A stretch of 14,926 nucleotides of DNA from contig JBBSWJ010000024.1 in the NCBI GenBank assembly GCA_038046345.1, forward strand, positions 1 through 14,926, written 5' to 3'. The first letter of the stretch is position 1, and every line of letters begins with the position of its first letter. The notes beneath the pieces were generated by a model. That model was not told the DNA's origin, did not search any database, and saw only the letters and a list, made by a program, of their open reading frames with translations. Source of the stretch: Nanobdellota archaeon (GTDB lineage: Archaea > Nanobdellota > Nanobdellia > SCGC-AAA011-G17 > JACPNG01). The position numbers and the translations under genes are program-made. This document shows positions 2,698-14,623 of the stretch, piece after piece.

Positions 2698-3072
2698 TTA
2701 CCCAGAATTTGGACGTTTAAAACTGCCAGCAACATCAATTATGTATTTGCCATCCTCCACACGATAAACCAGCGGCTTACCATGAAATAACTCCACTATA
2801 TCCAGCTCATACTTACCAGGAGTCAAAATACGAATAGACTCAAGATCAAGTATAACCGGCTTATCAATATCTTCTAAACCAATAATATCAATAACATCAC
2901 TTTCAATCTGAATTTTATCTTCATCAGTAAGATTGCTAGTAATGTTTTTAGCATCCTCAATGTCTTTCTTCTTCATAAAAAAGAAAAATCTACCACCACA
3001 AGAACAACCAGCCAATATTTCATTAGCTCCATCATCATACAACTTAGTGCAGCGAACACATTGATGCGGCAT
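2698..3072 (-). CDS. arvC: Zn-ribbon protein, DUF2072/COG3364 (ArvC/OapC)
   Basis: MPHQCVRC...GCSCGGRFFFF, ESIRILTPGKYELDI and DGKYIID motifs. TAATG-coupled to the upstream gene. Confidence 0.88.
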   Translation of the reverse strand: MPHQCVRCTKLYDDGANEILAGCSCGGRFFFFMKKKDIEDAKNITSNLTDEDKIQIESDVIDIIGLEDIDKPVILDLESIRILTPGKYELDIVELFHGKPLVYRVEDGKYIIDVAGSFKRPNSG

Positions 3073-3458
3073 TAACCCAGCCTCCGCCTTCTATAACCCG
3101 TGGTTAATAACTGAACTTTATTAGGATCACGCTTAATTTCCTTAATGATAGTAGCAGGACCAATAACAGTCATACCACGCCTGTCACCTATCAAAAGACT
3201 TGCAAATAACAAACGAAGTTTAGTGAGCAAACGCTCATTACTTCTGCTCTGATCAAGTGTACAAAGCTCAATACCCTTAAAATCTTTAGAAATATCCTCC
3301 ATAGTTTTCTCTATTAACTGAGTTTCTTCTTCAGGGCGCAGCCTACCCTCAACAAGAACAATCTTATTATCTTTTACTTCATCAATAATCCTTTTTATAC
3401 GCTGACGTGAATTAAGCCGCTGTAGTTCATGAAACTGAATGAATTGCAAAGTTAACAT
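3072..3458 (-). CDS. arvB: DUF2073 family protein (ArvB/OapB)
   Basis: KIVLVEGRLRPEEETQLIEKTM, FKGIEL and GMTVIGPATIIKEIKRDP motifs. Lies between the GTPase and the Zn-ribbon gene with TAATG overlaps on both sides. Confidence 0.88.
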   Translation of the reverse strand: MLTLQFIQFHELQRLNSRQRIKRIIDEVKDNKIVLVEGRLRPEEETQLIEKTMEDISKDFKGIELCTLDQSRSNERLLTKLRLLFASLLIGDRRGMTVIGPATIIKEIKRDPNKVQLLTTGYRRRRLG

Positions 3459-4090
3459 TATCTTACCACCCCAAACAATGACTCATAAAACTCCTCCATA
3501 TTCCTACCAGTTTCCGCAGAAATCCCAACAACATCATACTGAGGAAAAGCATCCTCTACTTTTTTAACATTAGCTTTTTTAAGATCAGTCTTATTAGCAA
3601 TAATTAAAACAGGAATCTTTCTAGCAGCAAGATTACCAATTATAGTGATATTAACCTGGGAATAAGGATTAACAGTAGCATCAAGAACAACTAAAACACA
3701 ATCCATGTTATCAAGCCACTTAATAGCCTCAATAACACCCTTAGTAGCATCCTTAGCCCTTAACTTGGCCTCCTTTCGGCTAAGCCTGTACTTAAGAAAA
3801 TCCTCATAATCAATCTTAGTAGCAATACCAGGAGTATCAACAAGATTAAAAGATAAAGTCTTACCACGACGCTTAATATCTATTTTTTCTTTAACAATAA
3901 TCTCCCTTGTCTCATGCGGTATCTTAGAAACAGTACTCATCTCTTCCCCAAGCCAATCTTTAGAAATACGATTTGCAAGAGTACTCTTTCCTGCGTTCGG
4001 AGGTCCATACAAGCCAAGACGCAACTGTCTTTTATTACGAAAAATTTTAGAGATAGTTCTCCTAATAAATGCGCTTATTTTATTGATCAT
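3458..4090 (-). CDS. arvA: Small Era-like/Ras-superfamily GTPase (ArvA/OapA)
   Basis: G1 GPPNAGKS, G2 region PHET, G3 DTPG, G4 NKTD and G5 SAE are present. First gene of the conserved GTPase-DUF2073-DUF2072 triad. Confidence 0.9.
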   Translation of the reverse strand: MINKISAFIRRTISKIFRNKRQLRLGLYGPPNAGKSTLANRISKDWLGEEMSTVSKIPHETREIIVKEKIDIKRRGKTLSFNLVDTPGIATKIDYEDFLKYRLSRKEAKLRAKDATKGVIEAIKWLDNMDCVLVVLDATVNPYSQVNITIIGNLAARKIPVLIIANKTDLKKANVKKVEDAFPQYDVVGISAETGRNMEEFYESLFGVVR

Positions 4091-4311
4091 TCATAACACC
4101 ACTTCTTAATATCTTAAAAATAGCTCTAAGCAATATAAACATTTCGGTGGTTTAATAAAGATTTAAAGAGAATACTTTATGTGCTAACATGGGATTAAAC
4201 GAGATAAGCCGGTTATATAGAAAATTAGCGCTATTTCTTTAAATTAAAACACAACGATTTATACTGCTATATCCCGCATAACTATATAAATACTCACATG
4301 ACCACTAAAAT

Positions 4312-4605
4312 ATGGTAGAACAACTTAATAGATCGGGGTGGTATAATTATCTGTTTGGGGTTGTACTCTTCCTCGGACTTATTGGAGGTGATATATGTGG
4401 TTCAATTAATCCAGGGTATAGTGTGCATCCAGCAAGGGTTTATAACGAACGTATTGACCAAAATGATTCAAAAGATATAGTAGTATTCGATGGTCGTGGA
4501 GAACATTATATCTTTTTATTTGATGGGGAAAAATTTGTTAGACTTGAAGAATTGCAGAAAGCAGAAAAAGATTCTTTAGAAGCTAAAATTGCAGAGCTGA
4601 AATAA
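4312..4605 (+). CDS. Hypothetical membrane-anchored or secreted protein
   Basis: One hydrophobic N-terminal segment (YLFGVVLFLGLIGG), an IDQNDSKDIVV loop and a charged helical tail. TATA box TATATAAA at 4283-4290. Confidence 0.7.
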   Translation: MVEQLNRSGWYNYLFGVVLFLGLIGGDICGSINPGYSVHPARVYNERIDQNDSKDIVVFDGRGEHYIFLFDGEKFVRLEELQKAEKDSLEAKIAELK

Positions 4606-4626
4606 AATTTTTCTTATCTAAAACTA

Positions 4627-4834
4627 ACTTTACAGCTAACAGCAAAGTATATAATATTTAGGCATAAACAAACCGCATGGACACAGAAAGACCTGTTGGC
4701 CCACCAAAAGAAATAAAAAAAATAAATGATTTTACATGGGAATTACCAACAAGCTACAAAAAAGGAATGAATGTACCCGCAAGAATCATAGCAAGTGAAA
4801 AACTATTAAAACAAATGGACTTCGGAGTTTTTGA
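4627..4834 (+). repeat. Direct repeat copy 1: rtcB promoter plus 5' coding region (208 bp)
   Basis: Aligns ungapped to 5409-5616 (offset 782) with 7 mismatches in 208 bp. Confidence 0.97.
4648..4655 (+). promoter_or_regulatory. TATA box of the duplicated rtcB promoter
   Basis: CAGCAAAG-TATATAAT, 21 nt before the ATG at 4677; one base differs from the copy at 5430. Confidence 0.6.
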
Positions 4835-4850
4835 TTACTATTGTCTATAA
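4677..4850 (+). pseudogene. rtcB: Truncated rtcB 5' fragment (57 codons; 53 identical to RtcB, then YYCL-stop)
   Basis: MDTERPVGPPKEIKKINDFTWELPTSYKKGMNVPARIIASEKLLKQMDFGVFD-YYCL*; too short for the ORF track. Confidence 0.93.
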
Positions 4851-4887
4851 ATTTATTGGCAAAGCCAAACAAGAAGCAGGAGACAAT
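4840..4887. other. Nested inverted repeats in the junction spacer (possible terminator or element end)
   Basis: ATTGTCT (4840-4846) pairs with AGACAAT (4881-4887), enclosing the hairpin TTGGC-AAA-GCCAA (4856-4868). Confidence 0.4.
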
Positions 4888-4891
4888 TTCA

Positions 4892-5146
4892 TTAGTATAC
4901 TCTTTCTCTTTTATCAACTTTCACAACAACAATTCTCTTTTCTTCATGATTAACTCTGTAAAGTGCACGATAATCTCCAACTCTTACTCTGAATATTGGC
5001 TCGTTATATCCCTGCACTCTTTTTGAATCATGAGGGATAGGATTAATCTTGAGCTCCTCTAATTTCTTAATAATTCTATCAAAAAGAATCTTTTCGCATT
5101 TTCTGAGAAACTTATCAGCCTGTTTATCCAGCGTTATTTCGAACAT
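4892..5146 (-). CDS. relE: RelE/ParE-superfamily (RelE/StbE-type) ribosome-dependent mRNase toxin
   Basis: 84 aa with A-x-KFL, RII-x-KL-x-EL-x-x-NP, FRVRVGDYRALY and C-terminal KRERVY. Overlaps the upstream acidic gene by 23 bp. Confidence 0.92.
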   Translation of the reverse strand: MFEITLDKQADKFLRKCEKILFDRIIKKLEELKINPIPHDSKRVQGYNEPIFRVRVGDYRALYRVNHEEKRIVVVKVDKRERVY

Positions 5147-5327
5147 TCTTAAGTTTATCTAAAGACGTGAGTTTTCCAGCTTTTTCGTTTACAATACTTT
5201 CATCAAGAAGTTTTTTTTCTTCTGCAGTTAATATTATGTCAGCGTCTACCATATGGACTTTAATGTAGTGTAATTCCTCTTTAATACTTTTAAGTTCGTC
5301 CATTATCTGCTTGGTTTCGGTTGTCAT
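5124..5327 (-). CDS. Putative cognate antitoxin (67 aa; start moved from TTG 5378 to ATG 5327)
   Basis: Small protein with an acidic core (ILTAEEKKLLDES...GKLTSLD) directly upstream of and overlapping relE. BRE-TATA spacing supports the ATG at 5327. Confidence 0.8.
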   Translation of the reverse strand: MTTETKQIMDELKSIKEELHYIKVHMVDADIILTAEEKKLLDESIVNEKAGKLTSLDKLKNVRNNAG

Positions 5328-5347
5328 AGCGGGTATAAGCCGGGCTG

Positions 5348-5364
5348 ATTTATATTGTTTTCGG
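5348..5364 (-). promoter_or_regulatory. BRE-TATA promoter of the antitoxin-toxin operon
   Basis: Minus strand CCGAAAAC-AATATAAAT ends about 20 nt before the ATG at 5327 (leaderless spacing). Confidence 0.65.
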
Positions 5365-5408
5365 CTATTTTTTGACAACCATCCTTTTGAACAAAATAAC
5401 CACCGCTT

Positions 5409-5616
5409 ACTTTACAGGCAACAGCAAAGTTTATAATATTTAGGCATAAACAAACCGCATGGACACTGAAAGACCTGTTGGCCCACCAAAAGAAATAAAA
5501 AAAATAAATGATTTTACCTGGGAATTACCAACAAGCTACAAAAAAGGAATGAATGTACCAGCAAGAATCATAGCAAGTGAAAAACTATTAAAACAAATGG
5601 ACTTTGGAGTTTTTGA
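5409..5616 (+). repeat. Direct repeat copy 2: promoter and 5' end of the intact rtcB
   Basis: 201/208 identical to 4627-4834. Confidence 0.97.
5422..5437 (+). promoter_or_regulatory. BRE-TATA promoter of rtcB-archease
   Basis: CAGCAAAG-TTTATAAT, 21 nt before the ATG at 5459. Confidence 0.65.
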
Positions 5617-6934
5617 CCAAGTAAGCAATGTAGCATGCCTTAAAGGAATTCAAAAACAAGCATTTTGCATGCCAGACGGACACTGGGGATACGGATTCCC
5701 CATAGGCGGAGTTGCAGCTATGGACACAAGTGACGGAGTAATCAGCCCTGGGGGTATTGGTTTTGATATTAATTGCGGCATGCGACTAGTTAGAACCAAT
5801 CTAACTTTAACAGATGCAAAATCAAAATTAAAAGAGCTTAATGATGAGCTATTCAAAACAGTCCCAGCAGGAGTCGGATGCAAAGGTATAGTAAAATTAA
5901 ATAAAACACAGTTTAAGACAATATGCAATGAAGGATCTAAATGGTGCGTTGAAAATGGCTACGGTAATAAAAATGACATTAAAAAAACAGAATCACATGG
6001 AAGAATAGAACAAGCAGATCCATCAAAAATTTCTGATAAAGTAATAAAAAGAGGATTAGCACAACTCGGAACACTTGGCTCAGGCAATCATTATTTAGAA
6101 GTACAAGTCGCACATAAAGACGCAATATACAATCAAAAAATAGCAAAAACATTTGGCATAACAAAACCAGAACAAATAGTAATCATGTGCCACTGCGGAT
6201 CAAGAGGCACCGGCCACCAAGTTGCAACAGACTACCTAAAAATGTTTGATAACGTAATGAACAAGTATAAACTTACAGTAAACGACAGAGAACTGTCATG
6301 CGCACCATTCTCAAGCAGCGAAGGACAAGATTATTTTAAAGCAATGGCCTGCGCAGCAAATATGGCATTCGCAAACAGACAAGTAATCATGCATAGAATC
6401 AGAGAAGCATTTATGAAAATATTTGATATGAGCGAAAGCGATCTAGGATTAGAACTAATATACGATGTAGCACATAACATTGCAAAAGTTGAAACACATA
6501 AAATAGACGGAAGCATGAAAGAAGTAATAGTACACAGAAAAGGCGCAACAAGAGCATTTGGACCGGGAGAAAAAGAACTACCAGCAGAATATCAAGAAGC
6601 TGGACAACCAATAATACTCGGAGGAAGCATGGAAACAGGATCATTCTTACTAGCAGGAACACAAACAGCAATGGACGAAACATTTGGAAGCACCGCACAT
6701 GGCAGCGGCAGAACAATGAGCAGAACAAAAGCAAAACACGAAGTTAACGGCGAAGAACTTCAAAAGAACATGGAAAAAAGAGGAATATATGTTAGAACAA
6801 AAAGCATGGCAGGACTTGCAGAAGAAGCTGGAATAGCCTATAAACCAATTTCAGATGTAGTAGACTCATTAGAAGGAGCTGGAATAAGCAAGAAAGTAGC
6901 AGGATTAACCCCACTAACAAATGTAAAAGGATAA
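5459..6934 (+). CDS. rtcB: RtcB 3'-phosphate/2',3'-cyclic-phosphate:5'-OH RNA ligase (tRNA-splicing ligase)
   Basis: PDGHWGYGFPIGG, GGIGFDINCGMR, GTLGSGNHYLEVQ, HCGSRG, YDVAHN, HRKGAT and STAHGSGR (guanylylated His) motifs are all intact. Confidence 0.98.
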   Translation: MDTERPVGPPKEIKKINDFTWELPTSYKKGMNVPARIIASEKLLKQMDFGVFDQVSNVACLKGIQKQAFCMPDGHWGYGFPIGGVAAMDTSDGVISPGGIGFDINCGMRLVRTNLTLTDAKSKLKELNDELFKTVPAGVGCKGIVKLNKTQFKTICNEGSKWCVENGYGNKNDIKKTESHGRIEQADPSKISDKVIKRGLAQLGTLGSGNHYLEVQVAHKDAIYNQKIAKTFGITKPEQIVIMCHCGSRGTGHQVATDYLKMFDNVMNKYKLTVNDRELSCAPFSSSEGQDYFKAMACAANMAFANRQVIMHRIREAFMKIFDMSESDLGLELIYDVAHNIAKVETHKIDGSMKEVIVHRKGATRAFGPGEKELPAEYQEAGQPIILGGSMETGSFLLAGTQTAMDETFGSTAHGSGRTMSRTKAKHEVNGEELQKNMEKRGIYVRTKSMAGLAEEAGIAYKPISDVVDSLEGAGISKKVAGLTPLTNVKG

Positions 6935-6964: not shown

Positions 6965-7393
6965 ATGGCATATACCTTCTTAGAAGACGTAGCAACAGCA
7001 GATGTAGCCTTTGACGCAGAAGGAGAAGATATAGATGAATTGTTTAAATCATGCGCAGAAGCAACATTCGAAGTAATGGCGGACCTAACCACAGTGGGGC
7101 AAGACACAGAAAAAAAGATAATACTAGAAAACAAAAAAGTTGACAAACTACTGTATGAATTCCTTGAAGAATTAATATACATAAAAGACTTAGACTGCAT
7201 ACTCTTCTCAGATTTTGATATTAAAATAAAAAAAGAAGACGGGATATACCAACTAGAAGCAACAGCATACGGATCAACTATTAACTCAGAAAAACAAGAC
7301 TTAAAAGCCGACGTAAAAGCAGTAACACTGCACATGTTTGAAGTAAAACAAACCAAAGACGGATGGAAAGCAAGAGTTGTACTTGATATTTAA
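6965..7393 (+). CDS. Archease (RtcB activating cofactor)
   Basis: FLEDVATADV, LLYEFLEELIY, DVKAVTLH and terminal VVLDI motifs; immediately downstream of rtcB. Confidence 0.95.
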   Translation: MAYTFLEDVATADVAFDAEGEDIDELFKSCAEATFEVMADLTTVGQDTEKKIILENKKVDKLLYEFLEELIYIKDLDCILFSDFDIKIKKEDGIYQLEATAYGSTINSEKQDLKADVKAVTLHMFEVKQTKDGWKARVVLDI

Positions 7394-13566: not shown

Positions 13567-14106
13567 TTAGCAACCTTCAAATGGCTCACCATTACGATTA
13601 CCAAATGTCTGAACCACAGCATCACAACCATGGATCACACCACCAACATTAACTGAAACAAACATTTCTATGAACGCAGGTTCATCCGGTTTAATACCAC
13701 CAATATCAGTACCAATATTATCAACTACCATTAAGTATGATTTAAATGGTTCAACTTTTTGCTCCTGCCTTACAAACGTGTCACTTGACTCCCCGCTCTT
13801 ACTTTCATAACGCATAAATATATCTTCTATCCTAATGCCCCCATTATTATTAACATTAACCTCCAGCCCTTTAACACCCGTAACCGGATCTGTCAAACAC
13901 TTAGCGCTAGATATATCAAAACGTAAATCATTTACACAAACAAACTGTATCTCAGTAGTTTCGCTAGTATCCTCTTGAACAGTTTTAAAAAAATCAGTAC
14001 CCCAATTAATAATCAAAACAGCAAGAATAACAGTAAAACCAATAATCAAAACAGTCGCAATTAAAGGAGAAACACCACTCTTAGACAGACTACCCTCTTT
14101 TACCAT
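13567..14106 (-). CDS. pilA: Archaeal type IV pilin (tandem paralog 2)
   Basis: SKSG|VSPLIATVLIIGFTVILAVLIINWG; four Cys; ends FEGC. Confidence 0.88.
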   Translation of the reverse strand: MVKEGSLSKSGVSPLIATVLIIGFTVILAVLIINWGTDFFKTVQEDTSETTEIQFVCVNDLRFDISSAKCLTDPVTGVKGLEVNVNNNGGIRIEDIFMRYESKSGESSDTFVRQEQKVEPFKSYLMVVDNIGTDIGGIKPDEPAFIEMFVSVNVGGVIHGCDAVVQTFGNRNGEPFEGC

Positions 14107-14598
14107 ATCAACATCCCTCTAATCTCCTACCAGAATCAAGATCACCAAATGACTCAACATTCTCGCTACAGGTATACTCTACATTGTTAATTAGCACAAT
14201 TGGAAAAACATCAACCTTACCAGTATCAATATCCCCAAGATCTGTTGAATCAATAACCAAAGTAGTTGTACCATATGCCTCAAGAGTCTCACCCATAACC
14301 TGCTTAACTCCATTTCGCTCACTGTCTCCATAATCAAAATTAATAAACCTAACAACAAAACCTTGTATACTATAATCAGCATTGTTCTTAACTGTAACTA
14401 GGAGATCACCACCAACACATTTCGCACCAGAAACCTCAAACTTCACATCATTAGTACAAACAAACTGAGTCTCAGTAGTCTTGCTAGTATCCTCTTGAAC
14501 AGTCTGAAAAAAATCAGTACCCCAATTAATAATCAAAACAGCAAGAATAACAGTAAAACCAATAATCAAAACAGTAGCAATTAAAGGAGAAACACCAC
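13936..14598. repeat. 143-bp direct repeat shared by the 5' regions of the tandem pilins (13936-14078 and 14456-14598)
   Basis: Ungapped, offset 520, 7 mismatches; perfect 69-bp core (13987-14055 vs 14507-14575). Confidence 0.95.
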
Positions 14599-14623
14599 CC
14601 TTGCTTATAGCATTTTTTTCCAT
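14108..14623 (-). CDS. pilA: Archaeal type IV pilin (tandem paralog 1)
   Basis: SKGG|VSPLIATVLIIGFTVILAVLIINWG; four Cys; ends LEGC; TATA box TTTATATA at 14660-14667. Confidence 0.88.
   Translation of the reverse strand: MEKNAISKGGVSPLIATVLIIGFTVILAVLIINWGTDFFQTVQEDTSKTTETQFVCTNDVKFEVSGAKCVGGDLLVTVKNNADYSIQGFVVRFINFDYGDSERNGVKQVMGETLEAYGTTTLVIDSTDLGDIDTGKVDVFPIVLINNVEYTCSENVESFGDLDSGRRLEGC

Follow-up and report, generated by a model that had tools for sequence, protein, structure and literature searches.

Contig JBBSWJ010000024.1 of a Nanobdellota archaeon (GCA_038046345.1) carries a small toxin-antitoxin cassette at the 5' end of rtcB, the gene of a 3'-phosphate RNA ligase, and the promoter and 5' end of rtcB are present on both sides of this cassette. 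The window analyzed here is the complete contig (C24; 14,926 bp) of an 821-kb genome with 34% GC and 97% completeness, and the runs in which its sequence was found are groundwater metagenomes from two studies. We propose that a cassette of about 570 bp entered the 5' end of rtcB with a 211-bp duplication of the target, by host recombination or repair and without a dedicated integrase, most likely through recombination with DNA of a related lineage. We give this reading a probability of about 45%, with duplication in place as its main rival.

The duplicated promoter and 5' end of rtcB

The direct repeat spans positions 4624-4834 (copy A) and 5406-5616 (copy B), both on the plus strand. Repeat search, MAFFT alignment and genome-wide BLAST gave a length of 211 nt with 8 mismatches (96% identity), a start-to-start spacing of 782, and only these two occurrences in the 821-kb genome. 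Each copy comprises the 53 nt 5' of the rtcB ATG, with a TATA-like box (GTATATAATA near 4648-4657 in copy A, TTTATAATAT at 5430-5439 in copy B), followed by 52 codons and two bases of codon 53. Copy A opens a relic open reading frame (ORF), rtcB' (4677-4850, plus strand, 57 aa), in which 53 RtcB residues are followed by YYCL and a stop codon; this promoter-bearing relic points toward the toxin gene. Copy B provides the promoter and 5' end of the intact rtcB (5459-6934, plus strand, 491 aa; PF01139, E 1.5e-169), and the findings support the view that the duplication kept the target gene whole.

Between the copies lies a 569-bp insert (4837-5405, minus strand), which occurs once in the genome and contains its own promoter, an antitoxin gene, a toxin gene and a hairpin after the toxin stop codon. 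Transcription of the cassette diverges from that of rtcB, and 131 nt separate the two start codons. Repeat alignment, ORFs and Pfam matches bear out the layout P-rtcB'(53 codons)-spacer-relE-antitoxin-P-rtcB(full) proposed in a preliminary description of this DNA. The same description spoke of a 782-bp segment. This value holds for the copy-to-copy spacing, but there is no fixed 782-bp entity: the mobile core measures approximately 490-560 bp, and the repeat is target sequence whose length varies by site.

The toxin-antitoxin pair

The toxin gene (4892-5146, minus strand) encodes an 84-aa protein of the RelE/ParE family (PF05016, E 1.1e-9, above the curated cut-off). Among solved structures, the archaeal RelE 1WMI was nearest (E 2e-7), and E. 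coli RelE (4V7K) was also matched. Across 24 aligned homologs, residues R53, R55, R60, Y63 and R80 do not vary, and Y84 is almost constant (at least 90%); they are candidates for the equivalents of R61, R81 and Y87 of E. coli RelE. The antitoxin gene (5124-5327, minus strand, 67 aa) overlaps the toxin start by 23 nt. Its product belongs to no named family, with no sequence match in Pfam, NCBIfam or PDB. In 50 distinct homologous pairs, a small partner gene lies upstream of the toxin gene; eight of these partners are of a different 72-aa type, and most resemble the cassette antitoxin.

The predicted toxin-antitoxin complex scored 0.69, compared with 0.01 for the best control; the runs agreed on at least 94% of contacts, and the partner had a predicted local distance difference test score (pLDDT) of at least 79. 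In comparison, 58 of 80 solved complexes and 2 of 110 mismatched pairs attained the 0.69 mark. Since a related complex (1WMI) is already solved, this result shows likeness rather than binding. The superfamily of the toxin and the overlapping upstream antitoxin gene assign the cassette to the type II RelE/ParE toxin-antitoxin pairs, with binding of the two proteins predicted by the model. The cassette resembles the aRelE-aRelB pair of P. horikoshii (PDB 1WMI) in its aRelE-like toxin and its small overlapping upstream antitoxin gene, and differs from it in an antitoxin that matches no solved chain in sequence.

A putative promoter region lies at 5345-5372 on the minus strand (AAAAATAGCCGAAAACAATATAAA); its TATA-like box is conserved in all close copies of the cassette. 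Downstream of the toxin stop codon, the palindrome TTGGCAAAGCCAA (4856-4868, minus strand) is a candidate terminator hairpin, conserved in the closest copy described below. The insert contains the two toxin-antitoxin genes only, and no recombinase, integrase fragment or transposase was found in it or in the window. Elsewhere in the genome, PF00589 matches a single complete tyrosine recombinase gene on contig C20 and a fragment on C5.

Two minor observations concern the cassette sequence. A minor contig of run X1 (depth 2.8 of 9.9) carries three base differences in the antitoxin gene, at window positions 5169, 5184 and 5187, so a second cassette variant coexists in this sample. The 24 nt at 4116-4139 resemble the cassette promoter, a similarity that was set aside as generic AT-rich promoter likeness.

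Assembly support

The genome is a short-read metagenome-assembled genome, and the arrangement could in principle be a chimera of two strain haplotypes, or of the chromosome and a 782-bp circle. We searched Logan contigs (k=31), which break inside the repeat, as expected. A 669-nt contig (X1 record 3) covers 4793-5461 without a mismatch and bridges both novel junctions, starting in copy A, crossing the cassette and ending in copy B. A second contig of 994 nt (X6 record 19; 5009-6002) runs from the cassette through the entire copy B into the body of rtcB, and a third of 406 nt (X8 record 27; 4402-4807) connects the upstream gene with a copy A that shows the copy-A-specific bases. Every junction is present on Logan contigs, although the upstream gene, copy A and the cassette were never found together on a single one of them.

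The upstream gene and the cassette were the only left-hand contexts of the repeat in these contigs. Depth was similar across the segments, and the sharp difference in coverage that would have pointed to an artifact was not seen; the low depth of the copy-A bin in some runs is uninformative for k=31 contigs of a repeat. Since contigs from two independent groundwater studies carry every junction, we regard the structure as real and a chimera as scarcely credible. No joint skipping the 782 bp and no loose end to another context was found in the Logan contigs of four runs; these contigs drop rare variants and do not inform about rare loop-outs or circles.

Copies of the cassette beside unrelated genes

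Homologs of the toxin were identified in 119 of the 240 genomes of the order, and the close relatives of the cassette at rtcB belong to Candidatus Woesearchaeota. The closest copy is found in Ca. Woesearchaeota RIFCSPHIGHO2_12_FULL_30_20 (G114, locus L097), a member of a different family, with 89% protein identity and 85% DNA identity over window positions 4823-5383. It adjoins a NUDIX gene and an insertion sequence fragment, with no rtcB nearby. Another copy, in Woesearchaeota nzgw60 (L180), shows 79% DNA identity over 4885-5371 and approximately 85% amino acid identity. On both sides of this cassette lies a 72-nt repeat (85% identical) in which the final 23 codons of the adjacent gene are duplicated. 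On the promoter side, homology to L097, L179 and L180 extends to window positions 5371-5383. The shared core reaches from about 45 nt upstream of the antitoxin ATG, promoter included, to the toxin stop codon or about 60 nt past it, and the ends differ between copies.

These comparisons support the interpretation of the cassette as an integrase-less, horizontally mobile toxin-antitoxin unit among Woesearchaeota. An integrase-less minimal element had been suggested previously, and the occurrence of the same cassette beside unrelated genes, together with a window in which no recombinase gene was found, agrees with that suggestion. No relatives of the toxin were found in a scan of viral contigs.

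The same cassette was also observed in a metagenome-assembled genome labelled uncultured Methanosarcinales (L179, CAYIEF010000016.1; 79% DNA identity, toxin 85% identical in amino acids), which represents either a cross-phylum transfer or a binning error. In G114, direct repeats of 38 nt (95% identical, spacing 524) also enclose the NUDIX hydrolase gene beside the cassette (L097:800-1361). Arrays of bracketed insertions may be made up of such adjacent small units.

Microhomology at the left junction

The left junction zone (4823-4836; TTCGGAGTTTTTGAT) is shared with the tail of the G114 cassette (GACGTAGTTTTTGAT) and also resembles native rtcB (TTTGGAGTTTTTGAC). On the toxin side, the sequences compared were GACGTAGTTTTTGATTACT in G114, TTCGGAGTTTTTGATTACT in copy A and TTTGGAGTTTTTGACCAAG in the native rtcB of copy B. 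The join of rtcB and cassette falls inside a match of 9-12 nt (AGTTTTTGA) between the G114 tail and native rtcB, and the likeness reaches about 20 nt if one indel is allowed. The G114 assembly gave no rtcB match, so its cassette tail is not comparable with an rtcB of its own.

Judged from these alignments, the zone is either microhomology or an rtcB-like cassette tail. Either the cassette tail met a matching rtcB sequence, or the G114 copy descends from an rtcB-adjacent cassette that carried along a scrap of this gene. Both readings imply homology-dependent joining rather than a site-specific enzyme. Cassette homology may continue into copy B at its left edge, where 16 of 26 nt match beyond a gap in the L097 alignment, but this likeness was too weak to be used.

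Bracketing repeats as a recurrent footprint

In a census of 69 loci with a homologous toxin, direct-repeat pairs with a spacing of 350-1200 nt were counted. This analysis identified 21 pairs, of which 13 tightly bracket the antitoxin-toxin unit, with a typical spacing of 500-560 nt. Random placement would give 3.5 bracketing pairs, and none of 200,000 simulations reached 13. The repeats at these sister sites are 18-51 nt long, have site-specific sequences and overlap the ends of neighbouring genes; some of them supply the toxin's own stop codon. Across related units, repeats of 18-51, 72 and 211 nt were found, all with different sequences. No conserved or inverted termini were found at 14 bracketed sites, where the duplication ranges from 18 to 211 nt.

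The pcm locus (protein-isoaspartate methyltransferase) of genus g99 provides an empty site. Three genomes are filled at this locus, and a fourth, the congener G156, has the gene with a single copy of the repeat and no cassette. The insertion is apparently old: it is shared by genomes about 81% identical in DNA, and the repeats are 51/51 identical in one genome and decayed in the two others, which suggests that gene conversion occurs between the repeats.

Within the genome that carries the rtcB cassette, other bracketed units were also observed, including HicAB, AbiEii and Fic/Doc. The HicB/HicA unit (G000:C27:17434-18327, L137) comes after a gene for a class I Trp/Tyr-type tRNA synthetase, the 3' part of which is repeated over 91-94 nt on both sides of the unit (98-99% identical, both differences being replacements); the second repeat copy runs into a 100-N scaffold gap. 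An AbiEii-like nucleotidyltransferase unit has 36-nt repeats (G000:C30:1682-3474), a Fic/Doc gene 49-nt repeats (G000:C17:13647-14823), and a unit of a HATPase_c_2 gene plus a weak DUF5760 match below the cut-off 31-nt repeats (G000:C2:10757-12130).

Silent differences between the copies

Five coding differences were observed between the copies, all of them third-position synonymous: Thr3 ACA/ACT (4685/5467), Thr20 ACA/ACC (4736/5518), Pro34 CCC/CCA (4778/5560), Phe49 TTC/TTT (4823/5605) and Asp53 GAT/GAC (4835/5617). This agrees exactly with the earlier list. Four further differences precede the rtcB ATG, within the 53 nt of noncoding repeat sequence. At Phe49 (C, 4823) and Asp53 (T, 4835), copy A has the bases of the G114 cassette tail, and as both lie inside the 14 nt common to copy A and this tail, they represent cassette sequence rather than rtcB alleles. 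Furthermore, runs X2 and X6 have the copy-A base, C, at the Pro34 site of copy B (5560), so this site is polymorphic or converted.

In this sequence, 17-26% of random substitutions are silent. Assuming that copy A drifts and copy B is purified, the probability that all differences are silent is 0.007-0.028 for four differences, approximately 0.03-0.07 for three and approximately 0.08-0.16 for two. The pattern is suggestive of two functional alleles, though not decisive. The earlier proposal of functional alleles from different strains thus stands in part: the silent-only pattern is real, but it rests on two or three sites, as two are cassette tail and one is polymorphic. Polarizing the differences with an outgroup was tried and abandoned, the nearest rtcB genes (about 72% identical in DNA) being too distant.

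Origin of the duplication

In the proposed mechanism, the donor DNA would come from a relative in which the cassette was already located immediately upstream of rtcB. The homologous 5' region of rtcB would have been the site of one crossover, and the short rtcB-like cassette tail that of the second join, by homology-facilitated illegitimate recombination or, equivalently, by Campbell-type insertion-duplication of a 782-bp circle. The product would then consist of the old promoter, rtcB' of 53 codons, the cassette, the second promoter and the full rtcB. Surviving insertions would presumably be those that leave the neighbouring gene intact, and an addiction function of the pair, if it exists, would select against loop-out between the repeats. 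Capture of DNA from a relative, as suggested in the preliminary description, is still the favoured route, with the junction located in microhomology, but duplication in place is the main rival.

A related rtcB locus from a metagenome offers a parallel (L087:8437-10228, Ga0209211_10001104). It contains an rtcB' fragment of 71 codons, followed by an ORF of unknown family, a gene for a LAGLIDADG endonuclease (PF14528, E 2e-18) and a complete rtcB that has a start of its own. Identity between the two 5' copies is 82%; they differ by 23 silent and 8 replacement changes, and their first 17 codons are unrelated. As far as their sequences tell, both are functional alleles that have diverged, which shows that a foreign 5' end and a selfish gene can be placed before a resident rtcB. 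By analogy, this case supports the two-lineage route for rtcB in the window without proving it. The fragment ends at PDGH, a few bases before a candidate intron site, and a DDE transposase gene lies just upstream.

The duplication may instead have arisen at the insertion itself, if the cassette entered at a widely staggered break, or if template switching was re-primed 211 nt upstream. The copies would then have been identical at birth, and the present 8 differences would be later mutations, kept few and compatible with rtcB by gene conversion. We consider this possibility somewhat less probable than the related-lineage route, and several observations count for it and against that route. Many sister insertions have perfectly identical 18-51-nt repeats, and several bracketing pairs with 100% identity (51, 30, 27 and 26 nt) fit duplication at insertion equally well. 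Only Thr3, Thr20 and perhaps Pro34 are left as independent silent differences (2-3 sites), so the silent-only pattern loses significance (P about 0.03-0.16), and gene conversion between the copies explains it equally well. Such conversion is suggested by the unequal decay of the g99 repeats, and the copy-A base at 5560 of copy B in two runs is in line with it. Moreover, neither a strain with an empty rtcB site nor the donor arrangement, a cassette upstream of rtcB without copy A, was found in the genome set, which holds one species of the genus, or in a metagenome scan with the RtcB N-terminus, which reached only relatives of at most 85% amino acid identity. Even for bacterial restriction-modification units with long target duplications, breaks and recombination are suspected and the mechanism is not established (PMC2853133). 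Against duplication in place, the probability of silent changes only is low when all four in-repeat differences are counted (0.007-0.028), the parallel rtcB locus clearly joins two diverged functional alleles, and a stagger of 211 nt far exceeds the 18-51 nt of most sister sites.

The remaining explanations appear far less probable. RelE-family toxins cleave mRNA and leave ends that RtcB can seal. Hence a RelE-type toxin placed head-to-head with rtcB and archease might act as a switch between RNA breakage and repair, a role that is compatible with the other explanations and in keeping with the divergent transcription across 131 nt. However, none of approximately 90 related rtcB loci carries a homolog of the toxin or antitoxin, and the cassette adjoins unrelated genes elsewhere; the association is therefore not conserved, and we consider a functional pairing improbable. 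More doubtful still is a remnant of a larger plasmid or virus that integrated site-specifically in rtcB and was later deleted down to attL, the toxin-antitoxin pair and attR. Direct repeats that restore a gene are the classical footprint of an integrase (discussed in PMC2853133 and PMC4158269). Yet at least 10 independent sites show the same minimal promoter-antitoxin-toxin unit tightly enclosed by differing repeats, and such a remnant is implausible, as the deletion would have to recur down to exactly the same unit. In addition, the window revealed no integrase fragment and the viral contigs no toxin relative.

A broader and rather speculative extension, which we regard as unlikely at present, is that addiction cassettes of DPANN archaea follow a recombinase-free life cycle. 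The duplicated target would serve as a portable attachment site, and a small circle formed by loop-out, which would contain the cassette and part of its previous target, would re-insert at the same gene in a new genome by host homologous recombination and restore this gene on every occasion. The rtcB-like tail of about 20 nt in G114 would be the footprint of such a hop.

Comparison with known systems

Insertion with long target duplication has been described for restriction-modification units (Nobusato et al. 2000, as cited by Furuta, Abe and Kobayashi 2010, NAR 38:2428, PMC2853133). In those cases, direct repeats of 46 to about 420 bp often overlap the end of a neighbouring gene, empty sites have one copy, and no mobility gene is present (PMC2853133). 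The rtcB cassette is similar in being a small addiction-type unit without a mobility gene, with flanks above 30 bp (211 nt, 96%) and with repeats that vary between sites. As to a single-copy target, no empty-site relative was found for the rtcB locus in the genome set or the metagenome scan, although the repeat is clearly rtcB sequence, and the sister pcm site has one copy in G156. It differs in its type II toxin-antitoxin cargo, its DPANN host, the duplication of a promoter and 5' end instead of a 3' end, and the microhomology visible at one junction. No archaeal case passed the screen of that study (PMC2853133).

The cassette shares with integrase-mediated elements a rebuilt target gene, direct repeats flanking the insert and a replacement end that differs mainly at silent sites. 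Phage 21 and e14, for example, carry a replacement icd end, and archaeal elements integrate in tRNA genes. Such elements have their own integrase and one fixed att site, whereas the rtcB cassette has no integrase, and both its targets and its repeat lengths vary. The terminal inverted repeats and fixed short duplication of DNA transposons, miniature inverted-repeat transposable elements and casposons were not seen in the cassette, and its flanks are rtcB sequence rather than the palindromic attC of integron gene cassettes. Integrons have reportedly been described from archaea (10.1101/2022.02.06.479319). Homology-facilitated illegitimate recombination and Campbell insertion-duplication are known from transformable bacteria. 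They resemble the present case in that one homologous anchor with a microhomology join, or the single crossover of a circle, results in an insert flanked by duplicated homology; for Woesearchaeota, DNA uptake and the pathway would be an analogy only. A literature search on flanking repeats of archaeal toxin-antitoxin loci returned nothing specific. The new elements of this case are the toxin-antitoxin cargo in a DPANN archaeon, the duplicated rtcB promoter and 5' end, the visible microhomology and the order-wide statistics.

Other features of the window and of related rtcB genes

An orphan ORF (4312-4605, plus strand, 97 aa) lies between a GTPase gene and copy A, outside the cassette. It has no Pfam or NCBIfam match, and no homolog was found beside rtcB in approximately 90 related loci. 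Three genomes of the family have the GTPase gene as the immediate, divergently oriented neighbour of rtcB; the orphan ORF therefore represents extra DNA taken up at this intergenic spot. Downstream of rtcB, the gene of archease, the RtcB cofactor, was identified at 6965-7393 (plus strand; PF01951, E 1.2e-38). Beyond the cassette and rtcB, the ORFs of the window comprise MscS, MarC, OapC, OapB, GTPase, archease, T2SSF, T2SSE and unknowns. OapC (PF09845), OapB (PF09846) and the GTPase form an operon at 2698-4090, directly upstream of the rtcB region, that resembles the origin-associated oap genes, and the gene content suggests that this locus may be near the replication origin. A further direct repeat of 156 nt (13927-14602; 93% identical, spacing 520) falls within two tandem paralogous genes on the minus strand (13567-14106 and 14108-14623).

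Six related rtcB genes contain an insert of 28-32 nt, never a multiple of three, that disrupts the frame between MPDGHWG and YGFPIGG (L008:902-968, L013:1455-1515 on the minus strand, L015:1068-1132, L049:10200-10262, L077:1926-1988 and L087:10208-10270). The predicted fold comprises a helix of 4-5 bp, a bulge of 3 nt and a hairpin in at least three of the six inserts (L013, L087 and L008) and is weaker in the others. By its sequence and fold, the insert is a candidate for a bulge-helix-bulge mini-intron in the very mRNA that encodes the splicing ligase, in which case RtcB synthesis would depend on RtcB. The window rtcB does not have this insert, and no report of an rtcB mini-intron turned up in a literature search. 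Another insert of about 1.5 kb, probably an intein, was observed at the NCG motif of rtcB, around residue 105, in L017, L033, L046 and L064.

Implications

The horizontal spread of toxin-antitoxin pairs is known, while the entry of a bare two-gene unit without a mobility gene is rarely visible. The rtcB locus and its sister sites present a concrete, testable footprint of such entry in ultra-small archaea, consisting of variable target repeats, a microhomology junction, an empty site and intact neighbours. For annotation, this means that a short piece of a gene's 5' or 3' end next to a toxin-antitoxin pair in a metagenome-assembled genome can be a genuine insertion scar and not an assembly error. 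The findings extend a phenomenon of bacterial restriction-modification units to archaeal toxin-antitoxin cassettes and to the promoter and 5' end of a gene.

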